The position numbers and the translations under genes are program-made. Positions 1,985-59,326 of a DNA stretch of 64,000 nt are shown piece by piece. Under the pieces are notes generated by a model. That model saw only the letters and a program-made list of their open reading frames with translations. It was not told the DNA's origin and did not search any database. Position 1 is the stretch's first letter; every line of letters begins with the position of its first letter. Source of the DNA: Thermodesulfobacteriota bacterium (GTDB taxonomy: Bacteria > Desulfobacterota_D > UBA1144 > Nemesobacterales > CSP1-2); NCBI GenBank assembly GCA_035559815.1, contig DATMAT010000029.1, positions 2,485 through 66,484 on the forward strand. The letters are read 5' to 3'.

Positions 1985-2394
1985 TGTATCCAAGGGACCT
2001 AAAATACACGAAAGATCACTGGTGGATAAAAGTTGAAAATGGAAAAGCACGTATAGGGATCACTCAGCGAGTTGCTGATTTCTTGACCCTTATCACCAAT
2101 GTAGAGTTTGCAAAATTAGGTGATGAAATAAAAGTCGGTGACACTATAGGTATAATAGAATCCCAGAAAACAACGGTAGATCTCTCCTCCCCATTGAGTG
2201 GTAAGGTTTTAGAAGTAAACGCTAATCTAATCAATGACCCACTCCCTTTAGTACATGACCCATATAGAGATGGCTGGATGATTGTAATTGAGCTATCTAA
2301 CCCAAAGGAGATTGATGAACTTATAGATATAGATGAGTACGTGAAGATCGTTGAGTGGGAAAAAGAAACACAAAAAGGAGTTGGGAGAATCTAA
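1981..2394 (+). CDS. gcvH: glycine cleavage system H protein
   Basis: YTKDHWW...GITQ...ESQK(lipoyl-Lys)T...SPLSGKV...DPYRDGWM signature of GcvH. Confidence 0.8.
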   Translation: MMYPRDLKYTKDHWWIKVENGKARIGITQRVADFLTLITNVEFAKLGDEIKVGDTIGIIESQKTTVDLSSPLSGKVLEVNANLINDPLPLVHDPYRDGWMIVIELSNPKEIDELIDIDEYVKIVEWEKETQKGVGRI

Positions 2395-2564
2395 AATCCA
2401 TTCATCTGAGAACAAACTTCCGGATGAAATTTCCTACTGAGTTAGACCTGAAGATATACGGCGAGACCATGATCGGAATCCCCCACATAGAGGCCGGCCC
2501 CCTCGTCAGAAGCTCCTACCATGCGCAGAAGCAGGTGATTAAGCTGGGTGGAGATTTTAGTTAG
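2355..2564 (+). pseudogene. lipA: lipoyl synthase C-terminal remnant (about 50-60 codons)
   Basis: encodes ...FPTELD...GIPHIEAGPLVRSSYHAQKQ, matching the conserved LipA C-terminus (GFxHVxSGPLVRSSYHA); radical-SAM N-terminal 85% absent; out of frame with and overlapping gcvH 3' end. Confidence 0.6.
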
Positions 2565-2667
2565 AATTAACTTTTAAACCTGTAGTTAACCCACTCTTAA
2601 CTCACCTTGACTTTATCAATATTAAGTTTATATTTGAGTTCCAATTCGAAGCTCTTTTAAAAATTAA

Positions 2668-2840
2668 GGTTCACGGGTGCCTATGAAGGCCTAAGAGGGA
2701 AGTCCGGTGAAAATCCGGCGCAGCCCGCTCGCTGCTGTAAGTAGCCCGTAAAGCCCTTTGCACTATGCCACTGGAATTCTTTTCATGCCGGGAAGGCGCA
2801 AGGGAGCCAGATGCTACAAGCCAGAAGACCTGCCTGGGGA
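2668..2840 (+). promoter_or_regulatory. cobalamin (B12) riboswitch
   Basis: ggtgcc...agggaagtccggtgaaaatccggcgcagcccgc...gccactgg...ccgggaaggcg and B12-box gccagaagacctgcc; directly upstream of a TonB-dependent receptor. Confidence 0.85.
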
Positions 2841-2929
2841 CTGAGTTTGCTTTTCTTCGAGGGGAGAAAGTAAATGACTTCAACCGTAGAACGAACCCCT
2901 GTCTTCTTCCCTGAAGACCGGGGGTCCTG

Positions 2930-4804
2930 ATGAAAAATTTGATCCTGCTGTTCCTCTTCTTATTCTCCGCGGATATCCTTGCGGAAGAGGAAGAGACTAT
3001 TACGCTTGAGCCGGTGGTTGTCGAAGAAGTACCGGTAGAGCCCCCTCTCGATTACCCTTCCGCTTTTTCAACCGTGATCGACCTCGGTGATTTCGGCGGT
3101 GAGTACAACACCACGTCTGAGATTCTTTCTTTCTCCCCGGGTGTAGTGGTGAGAGACTTCGGCGGGTTTGGCCAGCTCAAAACCTTGTCTATTCGCGGTT
3201 CATCCAATGACCAGGTGGTAATCCTGCTAGACGGCGTGAGGATAAACAGTCCACTGGGGGGAGGGGTGGATTTATCTACCATTCCCATTGATTACGTGGA
3301 GAGATTTGAAATCGTAAGAGGCGGCGCATCGGCCCTGGTAGGCTCTGATGCCATAGGCGGAGTGGTAAACATAGTAACCAAAAAAACAGACGACCCCTTC
3401 ACCAATTTGTCCTTTACATACGGTTCATTCAACACCCTGAGTGCAAACCTCTCCAGGGCTCAGAAATTAGGAAATCTGAGCTACTTCTTCTCTTATACAC
3501 ACGCCCAGAGTGAAGGCGATTTTAAGTTCAAGTCTGTCAATAACCTGACCCTCACCAGGATAAACAACGAGTTCTTCTCCGAAAGCTTTCTGGGGAAGGT
3601 TGAATATGAGCTTAACGGCTGGACGATCGGCTTTCTTAACGAATTTTATTACGACGACAAGGGTGTTCCCGGGCTCGGCGAATTTCAGCAGCCCGATGCG
3701 AACCAAAAAGACCTGAGAAACTTAACCAGCATTAACATTTCTAAGAGTGGATTTCTTAGGCAGGACATAGATTTTGACTTGGTCCTGTTCAACAGGTTTG
3801 ACTGGCTCGAATTCAAAAATCCTGAGCCCACGGTTGGAATCCCTATTGACACCCTCAGCAAGACCTTCAGCTTCGGCTTAAATCCGAGGCTCACCTGGTA
3901 TGCGCCTTACAACCAGATAGTGACCTTCGCCACGGAGGTGAGGGGAGATATTCTAAGGGATGAGGATTTTGATAACCCTAAAAGGTTTACTTTTAGTTCT
4001 TTTCTCAGCGATGAAATCAATCTTTTTGACGACCTCCTTCTCATAAGTCCGATAATACGGTTTGACCTTTACCAAACCTCCGCCGAGGAAAGCACGACCG
4101 ATACCGGATTCTCGCCGAAACTGGGAATTATATTCTCTCCTCTGAAGTATGTTTCTCTAAAAGGTAATGTTGGAAGGTCTTACAGAGCGCCCAGTTTCAG
4201 TGAACTCTTCTTTCCCGAAGAGGGTTTCATCGGCGGAAACCCAAACCTCAAGCCGGAAAGCTCTTTTGATTTTGATTTCGGTCTGGTTTTTTCCCATCCG
4301 CGAGTCGGTTTTGAGATTACCTACTTCAGGAACGAGGTTGATGACCTCATTCTTTTCGTTTTCGTCAGCGCGCAGAGGATAGAGCCATTAAACGTAGGAA
4401 ATGCAACCGAGCAGGGAATCGAGACCAGCCTGGTCTTAAGACCGTTTGATTTTATGGAGCTATTTGCCGGATACACCTTCCTTGACGGTGAGCTCGAGGA
4501 TACCGGGGCGCAGCTTCCGGGAAGGCCCAGAAACAAGTTTGACTTTCGTGGGGTTTTAACATACCGCTCATTCTCGTTCTTCTGGGAGACACATTATGTA
4601 GACAAGATTCCACTTAGTCCATTCCCGGACTCGGCTACCACCGATGCCAGAACCACGAGCGATGTGGGAGGAAAAGTGGAGTGGAAGAATATATTCGTTA
4701 CGCTCGAAGCAAAAAACGTCTTTAACAACCTGGACGTGCAGGACGCCTTAGACTTCCCGCTTCCGGGAAGGACGATTTTTTTTACGGCAGGAATAAAGTT
4801 TTGA
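2930..4804 (+). CDS. btuB: TonB-dependent outer-membrane receptor, BtuB-like (B12 uptake)
   Basis: signal peptide, plug-domain motifs (TLSIRGSS...ILLDGVRIN), C-terminal ...TAGIKF, riboswitch-controlled. Confidence 0.85.
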   Translation: MKNLILLFLFLFSADILAEEEETITLEPVVVEEVPVEPPLDYPSAFSTVIDLGDFGGEYNTTSEILSFSPGVVVRDFGGFGQLKTLSIRGSSNDQVVILLDGVRINSPLGGGVDLSTIPIDYVERFEIVRGGASALVGSDAIGGVVNIVTKKTDDPFTNLSFTYGSFNTLSANLSRAQKLGNLSYFFSYTHAQSEGDFKFKSVNNLTLTRINNEFFSESFLGKVEYELNGWTIGFLNEFYYDDKGVPGLGEFQQPDANQKDLRNLTSINISKSGFLRQDIDFDLVLFNRFDWLEFKNPEPTVGIPIDTLSKTFSFGLNPRLTWYAPYNQIVTFATEVRGDILRDEDFDNPKRFTFSSFLSDEINLFDDLLLISPIIRFDLYQTSAEESTTDTGFSPKLGIIFSPLKYVSLKGNVGRSYRAPSFSELFFPEEGFIGGNPNLKPESSFDFDFGLVFSHPRVGFEITYFRNEVDDLILFVFVSAQRIEPLNVGNATEQGIETSLVLRPFDFMELFAGYTFLDGELEDTGAQLPGRPRNKFDFRGVLTYRSFSFFWETHYVDKIPLSPFPDSATTDARTTSDVGGKVEWKNIFVTLEAKNVFNNLDVQDALDFPLPGRTIFFTAGIKF

Positions 4805-4816
4805 AAGAACGAAACT

Positions 4817-4935
4817 TAGCCACTAATTAACACAGATTAACACGAATAAAGATAAGTGAGATACATGATTCATGATATACAATGCAGGATTTATATGAAT
4901 ATTCTTACATGCATCCTGTATCGTGCTTCGTTCGA
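4817..4935. repeat. family F element (agccacNaat...acacgaat...catcctgNatcgtgcNtcg)
   Basis: similar copies at 23689-23805 and partial at 33765-33812. Confidence 0.5.
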
Positions 4936-5017
4936 CTGAGCTCACGACGAAGTCTTGCATCCTTTGTCTTTATTTGTGTTCATTCGCGGCTAAAACGAAA
5001 AAAAGGAGGATAAAGCA

Positions 5018-6487
5018 ATGAGGTTCCTTATAGTTATTTTCATCCTGGGGATATGGGGATTTATTATCGGCGGGTGTCAGACGAGTGACGGCGGCTCCGG
5101 TTTCATCCCTACCGGCCGCATCGTGGCGGTAGCGGAGAGAAGCAGTTCAGACACGGTTCAAGTTGGCGGACCAAGAGGCTCGGCCACTCCGGGAGCATTT
5201 GTAGGGATTACCAACTTAGATACCGGTGATTTTAAAACCACCAATGTAAGGGATGACGGAAGTTTCTCCGTAGAGTTCGACGCCTCGACCGAGGACATAT
5301 TCAGAGTGGTTATAGAAGAAGACGGCATAGATGAGACGATAGGTGTTTCTATTTTGAGGGATGCCGTGGCCAGAAACATAGCTCAACTTGGCAGCGTACC
5401 CACGGAAATAGTGATAAGGGAAGAAAAAGCTTACGTGGTGAACGGTTTCTCCGATAACATCCAGGTCTTCGACATCAATCAGAGTCCGCCCGAGCAAATA
5501 GGAACGATAGTCTTACCGCCCGGCTCCGACCCGGTGGCTATGGCTTTTTTGGATGACACCCGTGCTTATGTGGCCAATATGATAGGGCAGAGCGTTGCCG
5601 TGGTGAACGTGGTAACAGGGCAGTGCGAGGCAATTATAGCTCGTACTGGCGGAGATTTTTCACCCTGCCAGACTGTGTTTATAGCCGTTGGCGCTTTCGA
5701 AGACCCGTCGGGAGTGGCTATTGCAAACGGTAAGGTTTATGTAACAAACGCTAACCTAGATGACTTCTTTGACCCTATTGGAAACGGGTTTGTAACTGTG
5801 ATCAACACTCAGACAAATCAGTTCATAAAACGTATTGATTCTAGTGGACAGGGGACGAATGAAATAACCGAATTAAACGGGAATATTTATTCCGTAAATG
5901 TGGGAGATACGGATTTCGACACAGATACAGGGGATTTCTTCTGCGACCCGGCCTCTATTCAAAGCATTGATGTCATTAATACTGAATCTGATGATATTGC
6001 AGACTCCATCTTCATTCCTTTAAGCGGTGAAAATCCCTTTGCCTGTAGTCCAAATAAGCTCGAGCCGACACCGGACGGCCGATTCGGATATTTGGGAAGC
6101 GGATTGGCCGGGGTACTGTTCAAAGTTGACCTTTTAAATAATACTCTCATTAGGGGCGCGGATAATCCGATAGTAATAACTTCGGCTGACGACCTTGACG
6201 CAACTTTTGATGTGGAGATTCGTGATGACGGCCTGGCGTTCATAGCTCTTTTTAACTCGGACCAGATTGCGGTGATGGATACACTGGATGATTCAGTAAA
6301 CCCCTTCCCTTTCATAGCCCCTTTTCCTGCTGGCCTCAGGGGGGATAATCCAAATTCTCAGTTCTTTGACGGTATACAGGACATTGCCATAAGGGAAGAT
6401 GGAGAATTCCCGGATGTTTTTTTTATCACCGGAATCAGCAGTCAACTGGGCTCTATAGATACTTCGCTTATACTTCCGCCGGAGTAG
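5018..6487 (+). CDS. beta-propeller (YVTN-like repeat) surface lipoprotein in B12 locus
   Basis: lipobox IIGGC; repeated AYV(A/T)N...VNVVTG / VYVTNAN blades; RBS aaaggagg. Confidence 0.5.
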   Translation: MRFLIVIFILGIWGFIIGGCQTSDGGSGFIPTGRIVAVAERSSSDTVQVGGPRGSATPGAFVGITNLDTGDFKTTNVRDDGSFSVEFDASTEDIFRVVIEEDGIDETIGVSILRDAVARNIAQLGSVPTEIVIREEKAYVVNGFSDNIQVFDINQSPPEQIGTIVLPPGSDPVAMAFLDDTRAYVANMIGQSVAVVNVVTGQCEAIIARTGGDFSPCQTVFIAVGAFEDPSGVAIANGKVYVTNANLDDFFDPIGNGFVTVINTQTNQFIKRIDSSGQGTNEITELNGNIYSVNVGDTDFDTDTGDFFCDPASIQSIDVINTESDDIADSIFIPLSGENPFACSPNKLEPTPDGRFGYLGSGLAGVLFKVDLLNNTLIRGADNPIVITSADDLDATFDVEIRDDGLAFIALFNSDQIAVMDTLDDSVNPFPFIAPFPAGLRGDNPNSQFFDGIQDIAIREDGEFPDVFFITGISSQLGSIDTSLILPPE

Positions 6488-6561
6488 GAGTCGATGGGAG
6501 CACATATTTAGACTTGGTTCTCTTCCGGAATAGACCGGCTTAGAAAATCCACATTATAAAT

Positions 6562-6589
6562 GTAGAGACGCATGGCCATGCGTCTCTAC
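6562..6589. repeat. REP (GTAG-type palindrome)
   Basis: gtagagacgcatggccatgcgtctctac, 75 nt after beta-propeller gene. Confidence 0.65.
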
Positions 6590-6741
6590 GATAAACTGCA
6601 CGGTGGCTTTTTTGTTCCACGGCTACTTTAACTGTATGATCTATCGAACCTTTTTATTATCTTGCATCGAGTACTAAATTAGTTAAAGATATTTAGGAGA
6701 GGATAATTTCTTCTCATTAACTTATTGCGGGGGTTTCTGCT

Positions 6742-7686
6742 ATGCGAATCTGCTCCTTCCTTCCAAGCACGACGGAGATTGTTTACGCGCTGGGGCTTGG
6801 GGACAACCTGGTAGGGGTGACTCATGAATGCGATTACCCTCCCGAAGCGGCCAGTAAATCCAGGGTAATAATGAGCCTTATCAACCCGGAGGAGCTTTCC
6901 AGCCTGGAAATAGACAGATTGGTAAGTGAAAACCATAAAGCCGGAAAGAGCACCTACATCGTGGAAGAAGAGGCTCTTCGGAAGGCTAACCCGGATATAA
7001 TCCTTACTCAAGGGCTTTGCGATGTTTGTGCCGTCTCCGGGAACGAAGTCATAGAGGCAGTGAAGGTTCTTGGACACAACCCTCAAATAATTTCTCTGGC
7101 ACCGAGTACCATTGGTGAAATCTTGGAAACAATCTTGATTATCGGAGAAGCGACTCAAAAGAAGGAGCAGGCAAGGGAGTTGGTGGACAAGCTCAAATCC
7201 AGGATAGAAAGGGTCAGGTCGTTGCTTGCGGCGGAGAAAGATCGTCCCCGGGTTTTCTGCATGGAATGGCTCGACCCGCCTTATGTGGCCGGGCACTGGG
7301 TTCCGGAGATGGTGGAGATTGCCGGCGGTGATTGTGTGGCCGGGAAACCGGGGAAGCCCTCTTTCCGGGTTTCCTGGGAAGAGATTTTAAACCATGCCCC
7401 ACAGGTCATAGTTCTCATGCCATGCGGTTTTGGTATAGATAAAACCCTCGAGGAGGTGGACGTCTTAACCTCGGTCGATTTCTGGTACAAGATTCCCGCG
7501 GTTAGAAAGGGGCACGTTTATTTAGTGGATGCAAACTCCTACTTCTCCAGGTCAGGACCAAGGGTGGTAGATGGGCTGGAGATAATGGCCAGGATACTCC
7601 ATCCGGAGGTAGTTGATTTTGAAATTCCCAAGGATTCGGTGCTTAACCTAAGAAACCACATTTTCCTTGAGTCTTTTTTGGGATGA
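6742..7686 (+). CDS. BtuF/TroA-like periplasmic-binding-fold cobalamin-binding protein (no signal peptide)
   Basis: LPSTTEIVYALGLGDNLVGVTHECDYP N-terminus typical of class III PBPs (BtuF, FhuD); B12 locus context. Confidence 0.65.
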   Translation: MRICSFLPSTTEIVYALGLGDNLVGVTHECDYPPEAASKSRVIMSLINPEELSSLEIDRLVSENHKAGKSTYIVEEEALRKANPDIILTQGLCDVCAVSGNEVIEAVKVLGHNPQIISLAPSTIGEILETILIIGEATQKKEQARELVDKLKSRIERVRSLLAAEKDRPRVFCMEWLDPPYVAGHWVPEMVEIAGGDCVAGKPGKPSFRVSWEEILNHAPQVIVLMPCGFGIDKTLEEVDVLTSVDFWYKIPAVRKGHVYLVDANSYFSRSGPRVVDGLEIMARILHPEVVDFEIPKDSVLNLRNHIFLESFLG

Positions 7687-7792
7687 AACGTCCAAAGTGG
7701 AAATCACTCAACTCATGGGAAAGAATAGAGGTGGGAAGAAGAAGTTTAAAATCTAGACTTCAAAAGAAGCTAGCGCTATATTATAAGACCCG

Positions 7793-8464
7793 ATGGAACG
7801 TAATTTTTTAGGAGTTTTGATGAATCATAATCTGAGTGTGCTTTTACTATTTATAGTCATGATAAGCAACTTAGCGTGCAGTCCTAAAATAGTATCTTTT
7901 GAGGCAAACCCAATTTTTGTATGTGAAGGGCAAAGTACCCGAGTTTCCTGGAAGGCTAGAGGCAGCACTGTACTTTTATCTAATCCTTTGCTTCCCGGAA
8001 CGGGGGCAGTGGAACCTGCCGGCTCCGAGAGATTTACTCCGATTGATACTACCATCTTCACAATCAAGGCTATGCGTAACGGCAGAGAAACATTTGTTGA
8101 GCAAGAGGTTATTCTTTTGCCTAGTAGAACGGAAAGGGAGATAGTAATCAGTATCAAGCCTAGTGTTGACGGAGATCTGGTTGGTGTTGAAACGATTAAA
8201 CCGTCGGTTTTAAGAGACTTTAAAAGCATAGAAACCATAAGAGGGGATATTGATAGGCCTATAACCGTTCTGCATGAGGGTCGCGAGGTTATCCTTCAGG
8301 CTAATGGCGTCCCATCCGAAGCGATGCGTGGTACAGGGTTCAGCGGATACTGGGAGGTACGTGCAAAACCTCTTCCCGGAGAGGAATTTGACGACCCGGC
8401 TCATGCTCCTCCGGATAGCTTTCGTATATTGGTTAGCCTTTCCTGCACTGGTTACAAAAAGTAA
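7793..8464 (+). CDS. hypothetical lipoprotein
   Basis: signal peptide with lipobox SNLAC. Confidence 0.4.
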   Translation: MERNFLGVLMNHNLSVLLLFIVMISNLACSPKIVSFEANPIFVCEGQSTRVSWKARGSTVLLSNPLLPGTGAVEPAGSERFTPIDTTIFTIKAMRNGRETFVEQEVILLPSRTEREIVISIKPSVDGDLVGVETIKPSVLRDFKSIETIRGDIDRPITVLHEGREVILQANGVPSEAMRGTGFSGYWEVRAKPLPGEEFDDPAHAPPDSFRILVSLSCTGYKK

Positions 8465-8476
8465 CACCTTATCAAT

Positions 8477-9463
8477 ATGGACATTGCTCAAGCTGAAAAT
8501 ATTATGGTATCGGAAAACCGGTCTTTAGAAAGCATTTTAAAAAAATCAAAAAGGGCGATCATCATAGGAATAGGGGGAGGCGGGGATATCGTGGGAACGA
8601 TCCCCACGGCCAGGCTACTCGATATGTTCGGGATAGATTGCATCCTCGGCGGTCTTCCCTGGGAAAGGTCTGTTTTTGACCCCATTCCCGGTCCCAGAGT
8701 CTTTGGTGAAATCAAAAATCTTCGCCCATTGAATGATACCGTTTGGTTTGCTAATAAAGACACTGTAACCGCCACCGGGGTCAGATTCGCCGAGACGGAA
8801 ATGGCCGAGATATACGAAAAAGAAATGCTACTGGTTGACATAACGAAAGGGGTTGTGGGTGTGGTAAAGGGGTTAGATAAGGCGATGTCGGAATTGAATG
8901 CGGATCTCTTAATCGGCATAGATGTGGGCGGTGATTCAATCGGATTCGGGGATGAAAAAGGACTAGCCAGCCCGCTTGCAGACGCTATAATGACTACCTC
9001 CCTTTCCGAGCTGAGCGGAAAATACGACACTCTCCTCGGCCTATTCGGATATGGCAGTGATGGCGAGCTTACTCCGGATGAATTAGAAAGGTCGTTAAGC
9101 TTGATTTCAAGAGAGGGGGGATTTCTTGGAGCTTGGGGAATTACCACTGAAATTCTTCGGGAGATGGAGATGGTGATATCAAAAATTCCGACCGAGGCAA
9201 GCAGAATTCCGGTTGAATGTGCAAAGGGGGAGAGGGGAGAAAAGTACATCCGCAGTGAGACTAGGAAGGTTTATCTCTCCACAGCATCCACGGTTACGTT
9301 TTATTTATCTCCAGTTGTGGTTGTGGAAAAGGTGTCAAAACCGGCGAGACTGGTTTTGGGCTCTAAGTCCTTGGATGAAGCCAACGAAGCCCTTCATTCC
9401 ATCGGTCTCTTTACGGAGCTGGATTTAGAGAGGGAAAGAGAAAGGTCCGGGGCTAAAAATTGA
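8477..9463 (+). CDS. DUF1152-like protein (GIGGGGD and DVGGD motifs)
   Basis: IIIGIGGGGDIVG ... IGIDVGGDS motifs recalled from DUF1152; 12 nt after previous gene. Confidence 0.4.
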   Translation: MDIAQAENIMVSENRSLESILKKSKRAIIIGIGGGGDIVGTIPTARLLDMFGIDCILGGLPWERSVFDPIPGPRVFGEIKNLRPLNDTVWFANKDTVTATGVRFAETEMAEIYEKEMLLVDITKGVVGVVKGLDKAMSELNADLLIGIDVGGDSIGFGDEKGLASPLADAIMTTSLSELSGKYDTLLGLFGYGSDGELTPDELERSLSLISREGGFLGAWGITTEILREMEMVISKIPTEASRIPVECAKGERGEKYIRSETRKVYLSTASTVTFYLSPVVVVEKVSKPARLVLGSKSLDEANEALHSIGLFTELDLERERERSGAKN

Positions 9464-9545
9464 ATTTAAACTAGCTTTTTAAAGTTGTTGGGCTCTATCT
9501 TATAAGTTTTGTGATGATATCTTCGGCCAAATTTGTCCTACATAG

Positions 9546-10060
9546 CAGATTGATTGTCGGAGTCGGCCTGATAGTAATCAAAGAACTACAATGACGGGCA
9601 AAGAAAAAGTAACCCCTCTTTAATTCTTCTTCTGTAAGCCTGTCCTGAGCGGAGTCGAAGGGCCTGTCCTGAGCAAAGTCGAAGGGCGGAAGGATGCACT
9701 TTATAGGCACTACTAGCTGCATGGCTAGTTTATGAAGTTTTTCTTTTTGCTTGGAATTGCATGGGGTGACTGTGCGTCTCTTCATCTCACGCACATTACA
9801 CACCACTAAATCCCCTCTCAAGAGGGTACTTGATGTAGAAATTCCCCTCTAGAGAGGGGTGTCCCGAAGGGACGGGGTGTGTCAGTTTAGAGAGGATGTC
9901 ACGGAGGCGTAGATAAGATATTTTAAAAAATAGGGTTAGGACGGTGCTTGCATAGTAACATAAAAGAGTGGACCTGATTTTTAAAATATGTTTTAGCCAT
10001 CTAAAGGCTTTGTTTTACGAGAGTGAATTGTTGATTCTTGATTATTTTGGACAGCAGTGA
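9546..10060. repeat. copy 1 of duplicated conserved noncoding element (5' module 9546-9627, 3' module 9938-10060, repeat insertions between)
   Basis: about 75% identity to 59562-59830 over both modules. Confidence 0.6.
9637..9700. repeat. family A repeats (cccttcgacNNNgctcaggNNgaacgg type), two tandem units, reverse orientation
   Basis: ctgtcctgagcggagtcgaagggc x2. Confidence 0.7.
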
Positions 10061-10250
10061 TCTTCGGTAGGAATTTTTTCTCGGTGAGCTTTCAAACTTT
10101 CTAAGTAGATTTTCATGGTGTCTTTAATATTCCCAACAGCTTCTTCGTAGGTATCACCCTGGGTGTGACAGCCTGGAAGAGCAGGGCAAAAGGCGTGGTA
10201 ACTGCCGTCTCCTCTCTTTCTAGAATTATCGTGTAGTTATATTCTTTCAT
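10042..10250 (-). pseudogene. hicB: HicB-family antitoxin, frameshifted (1-bp deletion)
   Basis: frame A gives MKEYNYTIILEREE; +1 frame continues DGSYHAFCPALPGCHTQGDTYEEAVGNIKDTMKIYLESL (HicB/UPF0150 signature); one missing G in gaggag(g)acggc restores it; no hicA adjacent. Confidence 0.55.
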
Positions 10251-10396
10251 TTTTCTTGCCTCCAAACTCTAGCCTTTTCCCATTTAACCTCTACCTTAAT
10301 TTTAAAGTATTTCAAATTAGTAAGAAAGTACCTACGGAGTTCATGCAGGGCTATTTCCTATCGCCGCTCGGAACTCAGGTTTGTGTTTTATCGAGA

Positions 10397-11302
10397 TCAT
10401 CTGATTAAATAGGCGATGATAATCGGCGTGGTGACGATGGAGATCAACGTTCCGGCCATTATGATCGAGGCTACGACCTGGGAGTCTTGTTTATACTTCT
10501 CGGCCAGGACGAAATTAAAAACAGCCGGGGGCATGGCCGATTGAAGTTTCACCACGCTGGCGATAACCCCGCTAAGGTCGAGCATTTTTACCACTACCAG
10601 CCCGAAAATAAACCCGGCTCCCACTCTTAATCCGCCGAAGAGGAACGACCTCTTCAGGTCGGTTAGCCTGACCTCGGACAATTTATACCCTAATGCAAAG
10701 GTCATCATGGGAATGCTGGCCTCTCCCAGAAGGTCTATTCCATTATGAATTGCCGTAGGCATGTTCCACTCCATCACGCTGAAAGCGACACCGAGCACTG
10801 CTGAATAGATGAGCGGGAGCCGGAACACTTCGAGCGGGCTCTTGCCATAATTCAAGATCATTATCCCCAACGAGTAATGAAGAACGGTGGTAGAAATCAT
10901 GTAGAGGATTCCGACGTTGAACCCCAAATCGCCAAATGCGAATAGCACCAGGGGAAGCCCCATGTTTCCGGTGTTGGCAAAAAGTACGGTTGGAAGATAA
11001 ACCTTGGTACGGAGATTTAATATTCTGACTGTCAGAAAGCCTATTACGAGGCATCCCAATATCACTCCGATAACGGAAACAAAGACCTTCACGGCAAGGC
11101 TGATTGCAAGCGGCTCCTCGGTGAGCGACGACAGGATGAGGCACGGGGTGGACACGTATATTACGAAGTCGTTGATAGCGGTGAGATTTATCTTTTTTAT
11201 CTTGCCGAACAGGTATCCGATGAGCGTGATCAGAAAAACCGGGAGTACGATGTTTATGATCTGGATGATAATCTGAGAAACCTCCTTCTCGGAGTCTGCC
11301 AT
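10397..11302 (-). CDS. AEC-family (auxin efflux carrier-like) membrane transporter
   Basis: about 10 TM helices, 301 aa, AEC-like architecture. Confidence 0.5.
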   Translation of the reverse strand: MADSEKEVSQIIIQIINIVLPVFLITLIGYLFGKIKKINLTAINDFVIYVSTPCLILSSLTEEPLAISLAVKVFVSVIGVILGCLVIGFLTVRILNLRTKVYLPTVLFANTGNMGLPLVLFAFGDLGFNVGILYMISTTVLHYSLGIMILNYGKSPLEVFRLPLIYSAVLGVAFSVMEWNMPTAIHNGIDLLGEASIPMMTFALGYKLSEVRLTDLKRSFLFGGLRVGAGFIFGLVVVKMLDLSGVIASVVKLQSAMPPAVFNFVLAEKYKQDSQVVASIIMAGTLISIVTTPIIIAYLIR

Positions 11303-11959
11303 AAGCCCCTATCGAGTTGGCTAATCATTTTACCTAACCGATGTGTCGTGACGAGTCTTAAGATAACTAAGTAAGATATTAGAATGTCATTCGAGCTCCT
11401 AATCTGGGGATTTCTTCTGGTTTTTTTCCGCTGTTATTTCTAGGAATCCTTCTGTTTTTGATCGTCCCTAGCGTCGCTTAGAGTTTTGGCTTCGTCATTT
11501 CCCAGGAAGATAACCTGAAACATTGCAAGATTCCTCACATCCGTTCGGAATGACAAAAGCGGTTTTGCGGTATGGGAAACGCAATGAAGGTTCTGTCATT
11601 TCGACTGAAGGGAGAAATCTTAATGATGTAATAGTTCAAGATTCCTCATAAGCTCCTTCGCTGCCGCTCTGGACATGGTTCGGAATGATAACCAGGTTTT
11701 CTAACACCGCATGAAAATGTTTGGTGTGGGTTACAAAAGCCCCCACACCGTCCGAACCGGTGACAGTAAATTCCTTCACCCCTTCCAGCGGGGGAAGGTT
11801 AGGATGTGGGGGGTAAATGAATCTTTCTTCACACATCGTCTATCTTGAGTCAAATCGAAGGGCTCCTCGCAATTGACACAAGGAGCTTGCTGGTTTACTC
11901 ATCTGTCGTTTATGAAATTCGGTTAAAATTAAATAGGAATATCTGATTAGGAGGACGCA

Positions 11960-12358
11960 ATGGCTAAATTACCCGAACAAGCTCTTAAGCTCATTAAAGA
12001 AGGAAAGAATTTCGCCACTATTGCCACGCTGATGCCGGACGGCTCGCCTCATGCGACGGTTACCTGGATAGACACGGATGGCAAACATGTAATATTCAAT
12101 ACCGCTGAGGGCAGGCTTAAACCCAAAAATCTTAGAAAGGATCCCCGGGTATCAATCTCCATACTCAATTCCGATAACCCGTATCAGCAAGTGGTGATTC
12201 AGGGACGGGCTGTCGAAATGACCCATGACGGCGCAGATGAGCACATCGACCGTATGGCCAAAAAATATTTGGGAGTGGATAAGTACCCATATCGTGCACC
12301 CGGAGAGAAGAGGGTTATTGTTAAAGTTGCACCGGATAAGGTTAGTGTGATGGGATAG
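11960..12358 (+). CDS. PPOX-class (pyridoxamine 5'-phosphate oxidase-like) FMN/F420-binding protein
   Basis: 132 aa split-barrel pattern (TIATLMPDGSPHATVTW...VIFNT...). Confidence 0.55.
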   Translation: MAKLPEQALKLIKEGKNFATIATLMPDGSPHATVTWIDTDGKHVIFNTAEGRLKPKNLRKDPRVSISILNSDNPYQQVVIQGRAVEMTHDGADEHIDRMAKKYLGVDKYPYRAPGEKRVIVKVAPDKVSVMG

Positions 12359-12490
12359 GGGATTGGATTTCTAAGGCTCTTTGGTTTTAAGTGATCTACC
12401 GGTCCCTTTGGTAAATTCCAGACATGCTTTGGGTAGACAATGTTGTCTCCTCTTGCAAAAAGATATTGGGTTATACGGGAATATTAGAGA

Positions 12491-13468
12491 CTACCATCTC
12501 ACCACTGCCGAGCCCCAGGTGAAGCCAGCGCCGAAGGCGGAAAATAAAACCAAATCCCCTTTCTGAAGCCTGCCGCTTTTTACCGCTTCATCGAGGGCGA
12601 TGGGCACCGAAGCTGACGAGGTATTTCCGTAGCGGTCCACGTTCATGAATACCTTCTCCGGCGGGATATCCAGGCGCCTTCTCACGGCGTCCATGATTCT
12701 GTAATTCGCCTGATGAGATATGAATAAATCAATTTCCTCCGGGTCCACACCCGCTTTTTTGATTGCCTCGACTGAAGCCGCCCCCATTGCTTTCACAGCC
12801 TCTTTGAACACCTCGTTCCCGTGCATTTTAAGGTAATGAAGCCTGTTTTTCACGCTCTCTTCTGAGGCCGGGTGGCGCGCTCCGCCTCCGGGCATATAGA
12901 GAAGGTTCCAGGCATCTCCGTCCGAGCCGAGGCAAATAGATAGAATTCCTGGTGTTTCCGATCTTGCTACTACCGCCGCTCCGGCTCCGTCGCCGAAGAG
13001 AATACAGGTGGTCCTGTCCTCGTAATCGGTGATTCTGGATAATGTTTCAGCGCCTACAACCAGGACAGTCTCGGCGTTCCCCGCATCTATGAAGGTTTTA
13101 GCTACCTGAAGTGCATATATAAATCCGGTACATCCGGCAAAGACGTCAAAAGCATAAGCTTTTTTGGCTTTCAGTCGGCCTTGAATAAGACAGGAAGTGG
13201 AGGGAAATAGATAGTCGGGTGTAACTGTAGACAGGATTATCAAGTCGATATCTTCGGGATTAAGTGAGGCAGCCTCTAATGCTCTAAGCGATGCTTCGTA
13301 ACCCATATCGGAGGAGGCTATATCCGGATCGGCTATTCTTCTCTCTACTATTCCCGTTCTTGTACGTATCCACTCGTCGGAAGTGTCCACAATTTTCTCA
13401 AGGTCAGCGTTTGAAAGTATCCTTTCGGGAATTGACAAGCCCGTACCTATTATTCTCGCATTAGCCAA
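12491..13468 (-). CDS. fabH: 3-oxoacyl-ACP synthase III
   Basis: RIIGTGLSIPE..., active-site FAGCTGFIYAL, C-terminal GFGAGFTWGSAVVRW. Confidence 0.85.
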   Translation of the reverse strand: MANARIIGTGLSIPERILSNADLEKIVDTSDEWIRTRTGIVERRIADPDIASSDMGYEASLRALEAASLNPEDIDLIILSTVTPDYLFPSTSCLIQGRLKAKKAYAFDVFAGCTGFIYALQVAKTFIDAGNAETVLVVGAETLSRITDYEDRTTCILFGDGAGAAVVARSETPGILSICLGSDGDAWNLLYMPGGGARHPASEESVKNRLHYLKMHGNEVFKEAVKAMGAASVEAIKKAGVDPEEIDLFISHQANYRIMDAVRRRLDIPPEKVFMNVDRYGNTSSASVPIALDEAVKSGRLQKGDLVLFSAFGAGFTWGSAVVRW

Positions 13469-13533
13469 GACGGTCGCTACTCCGATGGAACGTTTGAAGG
13501 GATATTATTAGGTAAATCCCAAATTTTGTCAAA

Positions 13534-14001
13534 CTAACCTCTTGCCTCAGCCGTAACTGATTTTATTTTTTCTTGATCGTCGTTACTTATTTTAACCCTT
13601 TTTAAATATTCGATTTTGTCGCTAAAAAAAATCATGTCCAGGTAATCCTGGTCCTTTAGCTTTTCCAGAAGTTCCATATCTTCACCGGATTCGATATTGA
13701 AGAAATAATCAAAGCGGTGGGGTTTGCTATTTTTATCTACAAGCGAGAAATACATCTTTACCGATGGGAATTCCGGCCTTTTTATGCATTCGAGGCCAAA
13801 TAGTATATTTTTTATAACTTTTAGGGAGTCGATTTTCTCTCGAGGCACCTTGAATATAAAGGCCGTTTTGCCATCGATCAGGTGAGGTAGGCATCCCCGG
13901 TCTATGAAAGAAAGGGTGGTCATCAATTCTGGGGTAAACTCTACTCTAGGATTGGTTTCTTCATCTTCTGGTGTGAGAGGCTCTTGGTTATGAAAGGCCA
14001 A
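13534..14001 (-). CDS. hypothetical protein (155 aa)
   Basis: ORF only. Confidence 0.35.
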   Translation of the reverse strand: MAFHNQEPLTPEDEETNPRVEFTPELMTTLSFIDRGCLPHLIDGKTAFIFKVPREKIDSLKVIKNILFGLECIKRPEFPSVKMYFSLVDKNSKPHRFDYFFNIESGEDMELLEKLKDQDYLDMIFFSDKIEYLKRVKISNDDQEKIKSVTAEARG

Positions 14002-14186
14002 TTAATGCTCCTTAAAGCTCAACGATGTGTTTTTTGTATTATCCTGGATAATACTCATTTTGACCAGCGGGTCAAGCGGATCTTAGGGGCGGACTGCAGA
14101 TTGTTTAAATTTTCATCCTTGACACAGGTCTTTATAATTAATTATTATCGAATTAGGAGGGAGGAACCACCAAACAAGGTCAAGAA

Positions 14187-14393
14187 GTGTTCTTGAAAAA
14201 GGAGGGAGAAATGCCAGTAGCCTTTGTAATAGGTGTGATTATCTTAGTAGTAGTTTTTCTCGCCGTTTACTTTATGCCGGAAAAAACTGAAACCGCTCCA
14301 CCCCCGCAAGCTGAGAAGAGGGAAGAACCCAAGCCGGCTAAATCGGATGAGACTATTGACCCATTCAAATCTGCAGTACCGCCCAAAGACTGA
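14187..14393 (+). CDS. small membrane protein, Pro/Lys-rich tail
   Basis: one TM helix then PPPQAEKREEPKPAK. Confidence 0.25.
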   Translation: MFLKKEGEMPVAFVIGVIILVVVFLAVYFMPEKTETAPPPQAEKREEPKPAKSDETIDPFKSAVPPKD

Positions 14394-14827
14394 GGGCGGC
14401 ACTCTTTATGTTTAGATAGTTATTTGCTCTGCTATCACGGATGAGCAAAGTTAAATTTCAGGGGTTGTAGCCTGAATTTATACGAAGTGAAAACCACTTT
14501 GTGTTAAACTTTAAATAACATAATGTAATTTCCGTAACCTTAATTCAGGCTTTATTTTGCCGAGCCTTACAATCTAACGACTGTAAAGGGGATGTTATTT
14601 TGATGGACTTGATGCCGAACTTTTCTATCCCTCTTTTAAGCATAATGAGCTAATGGGTCTTGACTGCGAATCGTTGATGGGGCAAGGATTCAAAAGAAGG
14701 TGAAACATAAAATACTATGCTAATCATTGAAACGGAAGATGGGTAGGCGCTATTTATTATGATGCTTTACCTATGACTAGGGGACGGTGTAGTAGAGGGT
14801 AACCAGGTAAGAGAAAGGTTAGTAGAG

Positions 14828-29418: not shown

Positions 29419-30009
29419 ATGTTTAAGTCAAGACTAGTTAGTAAGAAGGGCGAAAAGGGTTTTACCCTGATCGAGCTGTTGGTGGTCGCGGCCATCATCG
29501 GCATATTGCTTGCGATCGCTATTCCTAACCTTATCAAGGCTAGGATGTCCGCGAACGAGGCGAACGCGAGAAAAGCCATGCAAACTTTAAGGGATGCAGA
29601 AGGTGAGTACTTCGAGCAGGACCTGGATAATAATGGAACTAGGGACTACATCGATGAAATAGGTAACCTTACTGGTACTACGCCTTCTTTACGTGACCCT
29701 GAAGGCACTGCTGATGAGCAAGATGCGCTTGTAGACAGTAGTTTTGAGGGGGCAAGCGATACTGGGGGTGCTGATTGTAGTGATCCAAAGGCGGGATATT
29801 GCATTAGATGGGATGCTGCTGTCGTTGCCAATGCAGCTGGCCTTTTTGACGATTTTGGTTGGCAGTCAACTATGACTAGCTTTAACAAGGTTGGAAGAAG
29901 AGACTACGCAGTATACGGGGATGGAGTTATAAGATGTGACGTCAGCACATCAGGAGTCGGCCAACCTGGAACATTTGAAGTTGATCGGACTGACCCTGGT
30001 TGTGATTAA
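29419..30009 (+). CDS. type IV pilin-like protein (prepilin N-terminal methylation domain)
   Basis: KGFTLIELLVVAAIIGILLAIAIPNL class III signal; C-terminal Cys pair; TDPGCD end. Confidence 0.7.
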   Translation: MFKSRLVSKKGEKGFTLIELLVVAAIIGILLAIAIPNLIKARMSANEANARKAMQTLRDAEGEYFEQDLDNNGTRDYIDEIGNLTGTTPSLRDPEGTADEQDALVDSSFEGASDTGGADCSDPKAGYCIRWDAAVVANAAGLFDDFGWQSTMTSFNKVGRRDYAVYGDGVIRCDVSTSGVGQPGTFEVDRTDPGCD

Positions 30010-30531: not shown

Positions 30532-31125
30532 ATGTTTAATTTAGGTATAAATACTGAAAAAGGTTTCACCCTTATTGAACTCTTGGTAGTAGCAGCCATC
30601 ATCGGAATATTACTTGGTATAGCGATTCCAAACCTTATTAAAGCACGTCTTTCGGCTAATGAGTCTAATGCCAGAAAAGCCCTTCAGACTATTAGAGATG
30701 CAGAATATGAATATTCCGAACAAGACTTAGATGATAATGGCGCAAGAGATTATACTAACTTTATAGGTTCGTTGGGTGCGTCAGGTACTTTGCGTGATCC
30801 TTCCGGTACCAACGACGAACAAAATGCGCTTCTGGATATCACTTTTGAAGGTGCAGTAGTGAATGACGGAAATGCAGCGGCTACCGCCAATTGCACTGAC
30901 CCAAAGGCAGGATATTGCATTGGATGGAGTGGAGATGTTAACACCGATTCTACTACGCTAGCAGGTGATTTTGGTTGGGAGGCTTCTATGACAGGTGCTG
31001 GTAAGACCGGAAGAAAAGATTTTTCTGTTTTTGCCGACAAGGTTATCAAATGTATTGCTACTACCCAATCTAGTGGCAGCGCAGGACAATTTGAATCATC
31101 CCGTACCGACCCTGATTGTGATTGA
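30532..31125 (+). CDS. type IV pilin-like protein, paralogue of 29419-30009
   Basis: same N-terminal prepilin domain, conserved DPKAGYCI(R/G)W and TDPDCD C-terminus. Confidence 0.7.
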   Translation: MFNLGINTEKGFTLIELLVVAAIIGILLGIAIPNLIKARLSANESNARKALQTIRDAEYEYSEQDLDDNGARDYTNFIGSLGASGTLRDPSGTNDEQNALLDITFEGAVVNDGNAAATANCTDPKAGYCIGWSGDVNTDSTTLAGDFGWEASMTGAGKTGRKDFSVFADKVIKCIATTQSSGSAGQFESSRTDPDCD

Positions 31126-32222: not shown

Positions 32223-32632
32223 ACCGGTTTAGCCACGAATCTACACAGATGAACACGAATGAAAAAGATATTTTATATAAAGAGCTTTCTTATAAAATAA
32301 TTGGATTAGATATGGAAGTGCATAATAAACTGGGTTATGGATTCTTAGAAAAAGTCTATGAAAACGCTCTACTGATATTGTTACCGCGTAAAGATATCGA
32401 AGCAAAACAACAAGCACCGATAAAGGTATATTTCGAGGGGGAGGTTGTGGGAAATTACTTCGCTGATATTTTAGTTGAGGATAAAATTATATTGGAAATT
32501 AAAGCTTTAGACAAAATAATAGATGTCTACATTGCGCAGACGTTGAACTACTTAAAAGCAACTGGATTACAGTTAGCAATCATCTTAAATTTTGGTAAGA
32601 AGAGATTAGAGTACGAAAGAATCGTTAACTAG
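32219..32632 (+). CDS. GxxExxY-family protein (likely true start ATG 32249)
   Basis: LGYGFLEKVYENAL = G-x-x-E-x-x-Y signature; about 125 aa. Confidence 0.65.
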   Translation: MNRFSHESTQMNTNEKDILYKELSYKIIGLDMEVHNKLGYGFLEKVYENALLILLPRKDIEAKQQAPIKVYFEGEVVGNYFADILVEDKIILEIKALDKIIDVYIAQTLNYLKATGLQLAIILNFGKKRLEYERIVN

Positions 32633-32672
32633 ACAAATTTTTATTCGTGTAAATTCGTGTTTATTTGTGGCT
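32231..32672. mobile_element. TIR-bounded mini-cassette carrying the GxxExxY gene
   Basis: left agccacgaatctacacagatgaacacgaat vs reverse complement of right attcgtgtaaattcgtgtttatttgtggct (about 70% inverted identity); inserted in the spacer between ABC ATPase and permease. Confidence 0.45.
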
Positions 32673-32686
32673 AAGTAATTGGAATC

Positions 32687-47271: not shown

Positions 47272-47299
47272 GTAGGGGCACGCTGCAGCGTGCCCCTAG
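47272..47299. repeat. REP (GTAG-type palindrome)
   Basis: gtaggggcacgctgcagcgtgcccctag; near-identical copy at 59299. Confidence 0.65.
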
Positions 47300-51106: not shown

Positions 51107-51194
51107 TTATTCGCTTAGCCTATGGTAAGTTATCCAGCCTTAAAAAAGCTTGTCAAATGCATTCAGTATCAAACTTGTCCAAATAGTAGATTGC

Positions 51195-51310
51195 TTTGCA
51201 ATGACACCTTCTGTCTTGTCAATGCGAGAGACCCTTCGACGGAGTTTACACTGAGTTTATCGAATGTGCTCCGGGCAGGCCTTGCTTAAAACGTGTGAGT
51301 ATAAGGTTAA
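51195..51310. repeat. 115-bp repeat unit, near-identical copy at 57095-57215
   Basis: caatgacacc...cccttcgacggagtttacactgagtttatcgaatgtgctc(c/a)gggc(a/t)ggccttgcttaaaacgt. Confidence 0.75.
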
Positions 51311-51560
51311 GTGGGAATACACCGATCTGTCATTCCCGCGGAAGCGGGAATCCAATCTTTAATTATAGATTCCCGATTAAAAGATTTCGGGAATGACAAA
51401 GTGGATGGATCCCCGATTAATCCAGTCCCCAAATGTTTTTATTGGTGAACATTCGGGAATGACAACCAGGATGGATCTCTGATTCAGCTTGTCCCCGCGT
51501 ATGCGGAGAACAGGAATCCACCGATCTGTCATTCCCGCGGAAGCGGGAATCCAGTATTGT
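51310..51560. repeat. family C palindromic repeats (gtcattcccgcg-gaag-cgggaatcc), mixed orientation
   Basis: at least 4 units/half-units at irregular spacing. Confidence 0.7.
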
Positions 51561-51579
51561 AATTCCGGAGCCCCGATCG

Positions 51580-51790
51580 ATCCCCCGGTTTGCCCTGGAG
51601 ACCTGGCTCAGGACTGGCGGGTTTTGTTTTTAAAGCTTTTACTGCAGATATACATCCGCTCATTCTGAGCATCGTCGAAGGATGAATTAAGAGTGAATTA
51701 AAGCGAGAGGGGTTCATTCTTCGACTCGCCTGTAGTGAGCATGTCGAACTACTCAGAATGAACGGGTTTTGTTTCATAAAGCCTTTTGAG
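51580..51790. repeat. family A-type repeats
   Basis: cctggctcaggactggcggg...cagatatacatccgctcattctgagcatcgtcgaagg... Confidence 0.65.
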
Positions 51791-56664: not shown

Positions 56665-57105
56665 TCAAATCAAATCTGACTTGAGGATTTCTTTTACCTT
56701 CTCCACAACGCCCCCTATTCTCACCGGCCTGGTGATAACGTGCTTGAACCCGGCCTTTTCAAGCCCTATGGCTTTCCTCTTGCCGCCAGCCGCTATTATT
56801 AAGATTGGAATCGATGAGGCGTGCTCAGAAAGAATCTTGATGTCCCGAGTTGGGTCATCTTGGGATTGATTGTCGTATATTATGATTGCCGGTATTATTC
56901 TCTTATCGGAAATCCAGTCGAGTCCTTCGTTCAATGTCTCAACGGCCAGGGTTCTGATCCCCTCCTCTAGAAGCTGGGCCCGGAGAAAAGCCCTTTCCCG
57001 CCAATCCTTCATTATCAATATCGCCGCACGTGTTTTCATGAGGAAACTATGACAATTATACTTCTTCCAACTGATCCAAAATAGGAGATTCCTTCGCAAT
57101 GACAC
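56665..57105 (-). CDS. stand-alone receiver-domain-like protein
   Basis: about 120-aa alpha/beta pattern resembling CheY-like REC; weak. Confidence 0.35.
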   Translation of the reverse strand: MSLRRNLLFWISWKKYNCHSFLMKTRAAILIMKDWRERAFLRAQLLEEGIRTLAVETLNEGLDWISDKRIIPAIIIYDNQSQDDPTRDIKILSEHASSIPILIIAAGGKRKAIGLEKAGFKHVITRPVRIGGVVEKVKEILKSDLI

Positions 57106-57215
57106 CTTGGGTCTTGTTATTGCGAAGAGCCATTCGGCCCTTCGACGGAGTTTACACTGAGTTTATCGAATGTGCTCAGGGCTGGCCTTGCTTAAAACGT
57201 TTGAGTATAAGTGAG
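57095..57215. repeat. second copy of the 115-bp unit
   Basis: see 51195-51310. Confidence 0.75.
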
Positions 57216-57222
57216 AATCCAC

Positions 57223-57530
57223 CAATCTGTCATTCCCGCGCAACTTGTCCTCGACCATGATCGGGGAGCGGGAATCCGTCCACCTGTCATTCCCACGCAA
57301 GTGGGAATCCATTGTTTAATTATGGATCCCCGATTAATCTTGTCCCCGCATGTGTCTGGCGGGGAACATTCGGGGATGACAACCAGGGGGATCCCCCGGT
57401 TAAAACGGGGGACGGGGATGACATGCGGAGAGGAACCTCGCTTGATCTCTCGGTTTAACCGGGGTACAGGCATGACCGGAAGACTACTGTCATTCCCGTG
57501 GAAGCGGGAATCCAGTTTTTCAAAAAATGG
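57223..57530. repeat. family C palindromic repeats with nested insertion
   Basis: gtcattcccgcg[caacttgtcctcgaccatgatcgggga]gcgggaatcc etc. Confidence 0.7.
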
Positions 57531-57629
57531 ATCCCCGATTCGATAAAATTCAGTGTGTACTCCATCGTAGGGATAAACTACGACGAAGTAGAACATGAGT
57601 AATCTTTTGACGAGTTCGCCCTTCCCCCG

Positions 57630-57900
57630 GTTAAACCAGGGGACCTGGCTCAGGACGAACGGGCTTTTATTTCATAAAGCCTTTACAGCGGATATACATC
57701 TGCTCATTCCTTCATTGCACTCACCCTTCGTCTCCGCTCAGGGTGAAGTGGTATTAGAATGAGCTTGCCCTTCCTTCATGGTGAGCGGAGTCGAACCATG
57801 AGCCTTTCGCCTCCGCTCAAAGCCTGTCCTGAACCTGCTGAGGGCATAAACTCCGTCGAACCATGGGCCCATCGGTAAACTCTGAGCCTGTCGAAGGATG
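57630..57900. repeat. family A-type repeat cluster
   Basis: cacccttcgtctccgctcagggtgaag...gagtcgaaccatgag... Confidence 0.7.
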
Positions 57901-59298: not shown

Positions 59299-59326
59299 GT
59301 AGGGGCACGCTGCAGCGTGCCCCTAC
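59299..59326. repeat. REP (GTAG-type palindrome)
   Basis: gtaggggcacgctgcagcgtgcccctac. Confidence 0.65.

Follow-up and report, generated by a model that had tools for sequence, protein, structure and literature searches.

A cobalamin riboswitch and the three genes behind it, at positions 2658–7686 of the 64-kb stretch of Thermodesulfobacteriota DNA analysed here (the window, in its full length), are probably the surviving front half of a corrinoid-uptake operon of the type carried by Dadabacteria. The three genes encode a BtuB-like TonB-dependent outer-membrane transporter, a seven-bladed propeller lipoprotein whose remote homology to Bacteroides BtuG is supported by profile searches, and a protein of the BtuF/ShuT fold that has no signal peptide (the signal-less binding protein). 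In related genomes this trio runs straight into btuF, btuD and btuC, and we take the absence of these importer genes from the window to be, in all likelihood short of certainty, a derived and clade-specific deletion from the locus, not a new transport system. An earlier reading of the same DNA (the original prediction) had described a single unusual B12 set of five genes, extending to a small lipoprotein gene and a DUF1152 gene further downstream; the related loci do not bear this out, and the unusual appearance of the gene set is largely a rearrangement artefact, arising from deletion and inversion.

Gene order in the window and in related loci

All five open reading frames (ORFs) of the locus lie on the forward strand, in the order btuB-like transporter (2930–4804), 489-aa propeller lipoprotein (5018–6487), Peripla_BP_2 protein (6742–7686), small lipoprotein (7820–8464) and DUF1152 protein (8477–9463). 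We compared this arrangement with 38 loci, obtained from one genome per GTDB species by a scan with the propeller-family alignment, and with five more obtained by exact protein look-up, typing them by tblastn with the window proteins and with the BtuF, BtuD and BtuC of a relative. Almost all of the 38 species-level loci belong to the same lineage as the window. Counting species-level and metagenome loci together, about 30 show the order btuB–propeller–signal-less binding protein–btuF–btuD–btuC with a riboswitch in front, and a FabH gene and a Mem_trans gene usually follow a few kb past btuC. The genes are closely packed, with extrapolated median gaps of 41 nt (btuB–propeller), 93 nt (propeller–binding protein), 3 nt (binding protein–btuF), −17 nt (btuF–btuD) and 44 nt (btuD–btuC), and the gene for the signal-less binding protein is translationally coupled to btuF. 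Every Dadabacteria locus that covers the position has this gene inside the riboswitch-controlled operon.

The importer genes are missing from the window. Searches by tblastn with the relative's proteins found no orthologue of BtuF, BtuD or BtuC anywhere in the 64 kb, the lone match being a 27%-identical ATP-binding cassette (ABC) ATPase at 31.3 kb; Pfam scans of 30 of the larger ORFs of the window found no FecCD permease, and a low-stringency search of positions 6400–14500 found no pseudogene remnants of btuFDC. These results agree with the original prediction that no permease or ATPase genes follow btuB. The order seen in the window, in which the signal-less binding protein is followed by the small lipoprotein, DUF1152 on the forward strand and Mem_trans on the reverse strand, occurs only in three close relatives (loci L003, L004 and L005), whose propeller proteins are 76–78% identical to that of the window. 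Bacterium HR37 (L031), the closest GTDB genome (63%), has a full btuFDC set, with a convergent pair of Mem_trans (+) and DUF1152 (−) about 4 kb further on, and a further relative (L022) lacks btuFDC, yet keeps the order FabH, a 454-aa gene, Mem_trans (+) and DUF1152 (−). In the window the corresponding block reads DUF1152 (+), Mem_trans (−) and, further on, FabH (−), which is the inverted arrangement. Comparing the window with L031 and L022, we infer that btuFDC was lost and that the downstream block was then inverted. We rejected the idea of a decaying locus, as the btuB, propeller and binding-protein genes are intact and share 75–81% identity with their counterparts in L003 and L005.

The riboswitch and the BtuB-like transporter

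The original prediction had placed a textbook cobalamin riboswitch ahead of btuB, and a covariance-model search with Infernal confirmed a strong match to RF00174 (Cobalamin) at 2658–2851 on the forward strand, at full length (model positions 1–189), with 108.8 bits against a gathering threshold of 31.5 and an E of 2.5e-26. It is the sole Rfam match in the window and ends 78 nt before the btuB start. A homologous riboswitch lies 5′ of the transporter gene in every related locus that includes the upstream region (Rfam and nhmmer), with Rfam matches in L001, L002, L003 and L005. A terminator scan found no terminator-like site or U-tract between the aptamer and the btuB ATG, and folding of the RNA of positions 2836–2950 gave a forward-strand hairpin at 2895–2925 that can pair the btuB Shine–Dalgarno sequence GGGGG (2920–2924), with a z-score of only −1.77. 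Together, the missing terminator and this pairing suggest translational control, with the hairpin as a candidate expression platform whose fold statistics are weak.

In one Dadabacteria metagenome-assembled genome (MAG; L030), nhmmer located a second cobalamin riboswitch at 10900–11078 of the locus, between the gene for the signal-less binding protein and btuF. The ABC-importer genes of this genome are a separately regulated unit, and the gene for the signal-less binding protein remains with btuB and the propeller gene. A 70-aa ORF on the reverse strand of the window (2671–2883), antisense over the riboswitch, is almost certainly spurious.

The transporter encoded at 2930–4804 (+; 624 aa) carries Plug and TonB_dep_Rec_b-barrel domains by Pfam, together with a signal peptide and a TonB-box region. 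Its best sequence match in the PDB is E. coli BtuB (E 3.5e-34), ahead of Cir (6e-26), and the Bacteroides BtuBs rank behind the E. coli protein among its solved relatives. Scores against the NCBIfam BtuB equivalogs TIGR01779 and NF007926 lie well below the cutoffs (168.6 bits against 599.7, and 142 against 836), and the best NCBIfam model, TonB-B12, also scores far under its cutoff. We assign the transporter to B12 on the riboswitch and on the ranking of its best hits, not on an equivalog score.

The propeller lipoprotein

The product of 5018–6487 (+), which the original prediction had called a beta-propeller lipoprotein, is modelled as one by AlphaFold2 (AF2). The model, built with 61 orthologues (predicted local distance difference test score, pLDDT, 92.1; predicted template-modelling score 0.89), is disordered over the signal and tether and then shows a small beta-sandwich at about residues 33–112, with weak CarboxypepD_reg and Big_6 matches, and a seven-bladed propeller at about residues 117–489. 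The lipobox cysteine, Cys20, is invariant in the 61 orthologues and is followed by a Gly-rich tether, and the mature protein is strongly acidic, with an isoelectric point of 4.05 and 72 acidic against 22 basic residues.

A role like that of BtuG had previously been put forward by analogy, and the support now goes beyond analogy. When the propeller-family profile was searched against all PDB sequences, the top 12 matches were all BtuG1, BtuG2 or BtuG3 (E 1.3e-9 to 3e-4), including 8PTD, 8PTF and 8BLW_B for BtuG1, 8BAI, 3DSM, 8BMX_D and others for BtuG2, and 8OKV and 8PUJ for BtuG3; YncE, Lp49 and the YVTN S-layer protein were not matched. Alignment of the family with a BtuG1-like alignment by hhalign gave a probability of 97.6% (E 3.8e-12) over 183 columns spanning blades 1–4, the BtuG1-like alignment being made of Pfam DUF5074 relatives in fragments of at most 305 aa, on which just one B12-contact residue could be mapped. 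These searches support the propeller as a remote homologue of Bacteroides BtuG and not merely an analogue.

The propeller gene lies directly next to btuB in 34/34 loci where both could be measured. Its relatives in databases number only about 138, and those with names are all from MAGs of Candidatus Dadabacteria, Thermodesulfobacteriota or Deltaproteobacteria. When 1.8 billion representatives were searched with a profile, more distant relatives emerged, and the five that we looked up (L124–L127 and a contig of JGI 3300042731), of 403–639 aa and some without the N-terminal domain, are all encoded directly 3′ of a TonB-dependent receptor or of a large ORF truncated where the contig stops. DNA was available for four of the five, and in these the upstream gene product is 28–38% identical to the window transporter. 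One of these loci (L125) has the order btuC–btuD–receptor–propeller–exbB–exbD, and another (L126) the order receptor–propeller–btuF–btuC. No riboswitches were found near the L124–L127 pairs, a result that is uninformative because these contigs break off within the transporter gene or short of it. Since the distant relatives also sit directly 3′ of transporters, the transporter–propeller pair is a conserved module. Given the homology and the strict pairing of the genes, capture of corrinoids in the manner of BtuG, with handover to BtuB, would be the best-supported role for the propeller, and we lean towards it.

The signal-less binding protein

The gene at 6742–7686 (+) encodes a 314-aa protein with a Peripla_BP_2 domain (PF01497; E 8.8e-25). 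It had been described as BtuF-like and devoid of a signal peptide, and a check for alternative starts upheld this: an in-frame stop eight codons 5′ of the ATG leaves no space for a signal peptide, and the protein opens at the first beta-strand of the fold. No signal peptide was found in any of 60 homologues, the longer N-termini of some database entries being non-hydrophobic gene-calling artefacts. Vibrio cholerae BtuF and E. coli BtuF are among its sequence matches, and its score against the NCBIfam BtuF equivalog is 49.2 bits, below the cutoff of 234. Foldseek searches with the AF2 model (pLDDT 90.3) gave the tetrapyrrole-binding proteins ShuT, RhuT, PhuT and BtuF as top matches; as modelled, the fold would indicate a ligand of the haem or corrinoid class and nothing more specific.

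No other protein of the operon is as conserved; its mean column identity is 77%. Cys30, Cys93, Cys96, Cys228 and His185 are 100% conserved in the 60 homologues, which are 43–59% identical; Cys228 is the cysteine of an MPCGF motif, and the Cys/His site draws on both lobes of the protein. The related loci also encode a second binding protein with an ordinary signal peptide, the canonical BtuF, and the signal-less protein is accordingly an extra conserved component, not a degenerate BtuF.

The family is large, with at least 588 related stretches in a metagenome scan, and turns up commonly in metagenomes from soil and sediment. In 4/20 loci outside Dadabacteria, the gene has a cobalamin riboswitch no more than a few kb away, a proximity that we judge, without calculating it, to be well above chance. 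This proximity and the 3-nt coupling to btuF tie the family to B12. Quite possibly, the signal-less binding protein accepts or processes corrinoid in the cytoplasm, where it would act through its Cys/His site. A literature search on cytosolic signal-less or BtuF-like proteins found no relevant paper. Among the metagenome loci that carry the gene (L048–L123), some, such as L054, L059, L067 and L112, have it near cobalamin riboswitches or CobQ-type genes.

Spacers and the two downstream genes

The original prediction of co-directional genes with short gaps holds for the direction but not for the gaps, which measure 213 nt between btuB and the propeller gene, 254 nt between the propeller and binding-protein genes, 106 nt before the small lipoprotein ORF and 12 nt before the DUF1152 gene. 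By gap statistics, the btuB–propeller spacer (4805–5017) is enlarged; it contains a short dispersed repeat at 4814–4850, with copies at 32229–32260 and 32640–32676. A terminator joined to a repetitive extragenic palindromic (REP) element after 6487 had been named as something that would detach the downstream genes. The propeller–binding-protein spacer, longer than most of its counterparts in relatives (median 93 nt), does contain a perfect REP-like palindrome of 12–13 bp at 6561–6590, of which a repeat search found no similar copy elsewhere in the window. We rejected it as a canonical forward-strand terminator, as it has no adjoining U-tract and the terminator scan flags it on the reverse strand only; the same scan found no canonical forward-strand terminator between any of the five genes. 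The palindrome could attenuate transcription or stabilise the transcript.

The remaining two genes encode, as originally predicted, a small lipoprotein and a DUF1152-like protein. The small lipoprotein ORF begins at 7793 (+), with the start more likely at M10 (7820), giving a 214-aa product at 7820–8464 whose lipobox cysteine is invariant in three orthologues. It belongs to no Pfam or NCBIfam family, and no homologue was found outside the clade of the window. The gene at 8477–9463 (+) encodes a soluble protein with GGGGD and DVGGD motifs and a strong match to PF06626 (DUF1152; 301.3 bits against a gathering threshold of 27, E 8.9e-90); our literature search found no paper that mentions this family. 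Further downstream, a HicB-like antitoxin gene on the reverse strand (10020–10265) is split by a frameshift, its repaired frame matching PF15919 (E 1.1e-9). The spacer that holds it, 930 nt of repeat-rich sequence separating DUF1152 from Mem_trans, is the likely inversion junction.

Proposed mechanism

We propose that, when B12 is scarce, the riboswitch permits expression, probably by freeing the btuB ribosome-binding site, and that BtuB takes corrinoids across the outer membrane with energy from TonB, as is established for its family. The acidic propeller lipoprotein would most likely act as a lid or trap on the transporter, binding the corrinoid and delivering it to BtuB, and the signal-less binding protein would stay in the cytoplasm, where it may receive or process the imported corrinoid through its Cys4-His site. 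With btuF–btuD–btuC presumably deleted in the clade of the window, the inner-membrane step would depend on genes outside this locus or proceed in some other way. Inversion of the downstream block would then have landed the DUF1152 gene and the clade-specific lipoprotein gene behind the B12 genes as bystanders.

Alternative explanations

Were the five co-directional genes one riboswitch-controlled B12 system, the last two would replace the permease and ATPase functions or add to corrinoid handling. Their shared direction, the 12-nt gap between the small lipoprotein and DUF1152 genes, the same order in three related contigs and the lack of a canonical forward-strand terminator between the genes would suit such a system. 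Yet the DUF1152 protein is a soluble one without a match to any transporter family, and in L031 and L022 its gene lies outside the btu operon, on the strand opposite the btu genes and converging on Mem_trans, so that its direction in the window is the result of rearrangement only. The small lipoprotein, for its part, has orthologues in L003, L004 and L005 only, is missing from all other lineages and changes faster than the proteins encoded around it (62% identity against 75–81%), while in the three orthologous loci the gaps before and between the two genes range from 12 to 537 nt. The lipoprotein gene is also preceded by a promoter-like site at 7754–7782, although this site only fits a consensus, and shuffled sequence yields such sites at least as often. 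We regard a five-gene system as improbable; the small lipoprotein and DUF1152 genes are probably passengers and not part of the B12 system.

Several observations do weigh against reading positions 2658–7686 as the remnant of a corrinoid-uptake operon with a BtuG-like capture protein and a cytoplasmic corrinoid handler. With two spacers above 200 nt, one of which holds a strong palindrome, riboswitch control may not reach past btuB. The propeller protein itself has no Pfam match and falls below the threshold of PF16819 (DUF5074, the BtuG family), and sub-threshold matches among its 61 orthologues are to NHL and Lactonase in 29/61 against DUF5074 in 10/61 (best E 6e-4). The residue after its lipid-anchor cysteine is variable (D, N, E, G or Q), so that it yields no sorting rule, and in many orthologues it is Asp, which in E. 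coli lipoproteins leads to inner-membrane retention. The modelled structure, which the original prediction had suggested comparing with BtuG, superposes best on YncE, Lp49 and hydrazine synthase beta, not on BtuG. In addition, the arginine of the BtuG-invariant QPR motif, reported as a B12 contact (Arg141 in BtuG1, Arg135 in BtuG2), aligns by hhalign to Val173 of the propeller, with the adjacent proline kept. Such features would suit a periplasm-facing accessory or a YncE/NHL/lactonase-type enzyme, for example a corrinoid-modifying or structural partner, in place of a B12 trap. We nevertheless consider this unlikely, since the PDB profile search matched only BtuG proteins and not YncE, Lp49 or the YVTN S-layer protein, the propeller gene always lies immediately 3′ of btuB (median 41 nt), as btuG does in Bacteroides (PMC10404256, PMC6143338), the periplasmic step is already covered by canonical BtuF in most relatives, and the strong acidity resembles the negatively charged B12-binding face of BtuG2 (PMC10404256). 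For the signal-less binding protein, the four invariant cysteines, joined by one histidine and drawn from both lobes, suggest a metal or Fe-S site, not necessarily a corrinoid site, and the invariant LCxVCAVS (CxxC) loop is the sole low-confidence segment of the model. Haem-binding proteins are its top fold matches, V. cholerae BtuF ranking 5th and E. coli BtuF 12th in Foldseek with haem-binding proteins equally high, and outside Dadabacteria most of the neighbouring genes have no connection with B12: Diphthami_syn_2 (PF01902) in 8/32, often preceding the gene, PEP_mutase in 4/28 and MatE in 3/28. A cytoplasmic protein that handles metal, Fe-S or haem, with an indirect link to B12 through regulation or cobalt handling, for example, would account for these points. 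Against it stand the place of the gene in the riboswitch-controlled operon in every covering Dadabacteria locus, at a median of 3 nt from btuF, the riboswitches near unrelated loci, the occasional CobQ-type (2/28) and TP_methylase neighbours, and the sequence matches to the V. cholerae and E. coli BtuF proteins; we hold this explanation to be possible but doubtful.

Comparison with known systems and significance

YncE of E. coli escapes detection by the propeller-family profile and is not known to be a lipoprotein, nor is the locus of yncE and its partner yncD (pqqU) known to be B12-regulated. The closest parallel to the front of the operon is the BtuB–BtuG system of Bacteroides (BtuB1G1 and BtuB2G2, 8BLW and 8BMX; BtuG, 3DSM, 8PTD, 8PTF and 8BAI), which likewise has a riboswitch-controlled btuB followed by a gene for an acidic, lipid-anchored, seven-bladed propeller, with profile-level homology to the window propeller over blades 1–4. 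The two differ in phylum, in an identity of only about 17–27%, and in that the window propeller scores under the DUF5074 threshold, adds an N-terminal beta-sandwich and a Gly-rich tether, and has a valine in place of the contact arginine. E. coli BtuB, not the Bacteroides proteins, is the nearer relative of the window transporter, and no BtuH, BtuJ or BtuK genes accompany the window system.

With the E. coli BtuB/BtuF/BtuCD system the window shares a riboswitch-regulated BtuB-like transporter, to which most Dadabacteria relatives add a secreted BtuF, BtuD and BtuC. It differs in that btuF, btuD and btuC are missing from the window locus, the propeller lipoprotein and the signal-less binding protein are extra, and the NCBIfam equivalog scores for BtuB and BtuF are far under the cutoffs. 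The signal-less binding protein has the two-lobe class III fold of BtuF, ShuT/PhuT, RhuT and IsdE (template-modelling score about 0.8, normalised to the target) and shares N-terminal and GHW motifs with V. cholerae BtuF. Unlike periplasmic tetrapyrrole-binding proteins, it has no signal peptide, is predicted to be cytoplasmic and carries a C-terminal tail of about 40 additional residues; no cysteine of the S. epidermidis or V. cholerae proteins aligns to its invariant Cys4-His signature. Outside Dadabacteria its gene, in contrast to those of ABC-importer binding proteins, usually does not adjoin an ABC permease gene.

BtuG has been reported, on the basis of BlastP, as exclusive to Bacteroidetes (PMC6143338), and a 2026 review describes it for Bacteroidota alone; our literature search on Dadabacteria and cobalamin found nothing relevant. 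Tentatively, two proposals might hold together: that BtuG-type capture extends beyond Bacteroidota, to Dadabacteria and other uncultured lineages with the transporter–propeller pair, where a divergent BtuG with an N-terminal domain would serve as the lid or trap of BtuB, and that the Cys4-His binding-protein family, present in many phyla, is a cytoplasmic corrinoid handler, either an acceptor behind BtuCD or a processing chaperone that depends on thiols or a metal and has a role like that of eukaryotic CblC. B12 is traded between microbes, and its capture by non-model, uncultured bacteria is little understood. If a whole deep-branching lineage does carry a BtuG homologue as a fixed member of its B12 operon, capture by a propeller lid would be older than gut Bacteroidota or reach beyond them. 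The presence of a signal-less binding protein in a B12 riboswitch operon, coupled to btuF, offers a testable hypothesis on cytoplasmic B12 handover and processing, which are poorly understood in bacteria. The locus also counsels caution in drawing function from gene order, as what looked like an unusual gene set is for the most part a product of rearrangement.

Other features of the window

Short GC-rich palindromic (REP-like) repeats are dense in the window, for instance at 47272–47298, 59299–59325 and 63265–63291, and two near-duplicate intergenic repeat blocks (51181–51630 and 57079–57672) lie about 5.9 kb apart. Directly after gcvH, a 69-aa ORF at 2355–2564 (+) without a Pfam match ends in ...EAGPLVRSSYHAQKQV, which we presume to resemble the C-terminus of lipoyl synthase, in which case the ORF may be a gene fragment. 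A 475-aa protein encoded at 61385–62812 (+) contains a cysteine-rich Dickkopf_N/DUF7107-like module, and its gene has an internal 75-nt tandem duplication at 62495–62613. Two ORFs of about 196 aa each, at 29419–30009 and 30532–31125 (+), share an 80%-identical segment of 49 nt and are probably tandem paralogues.

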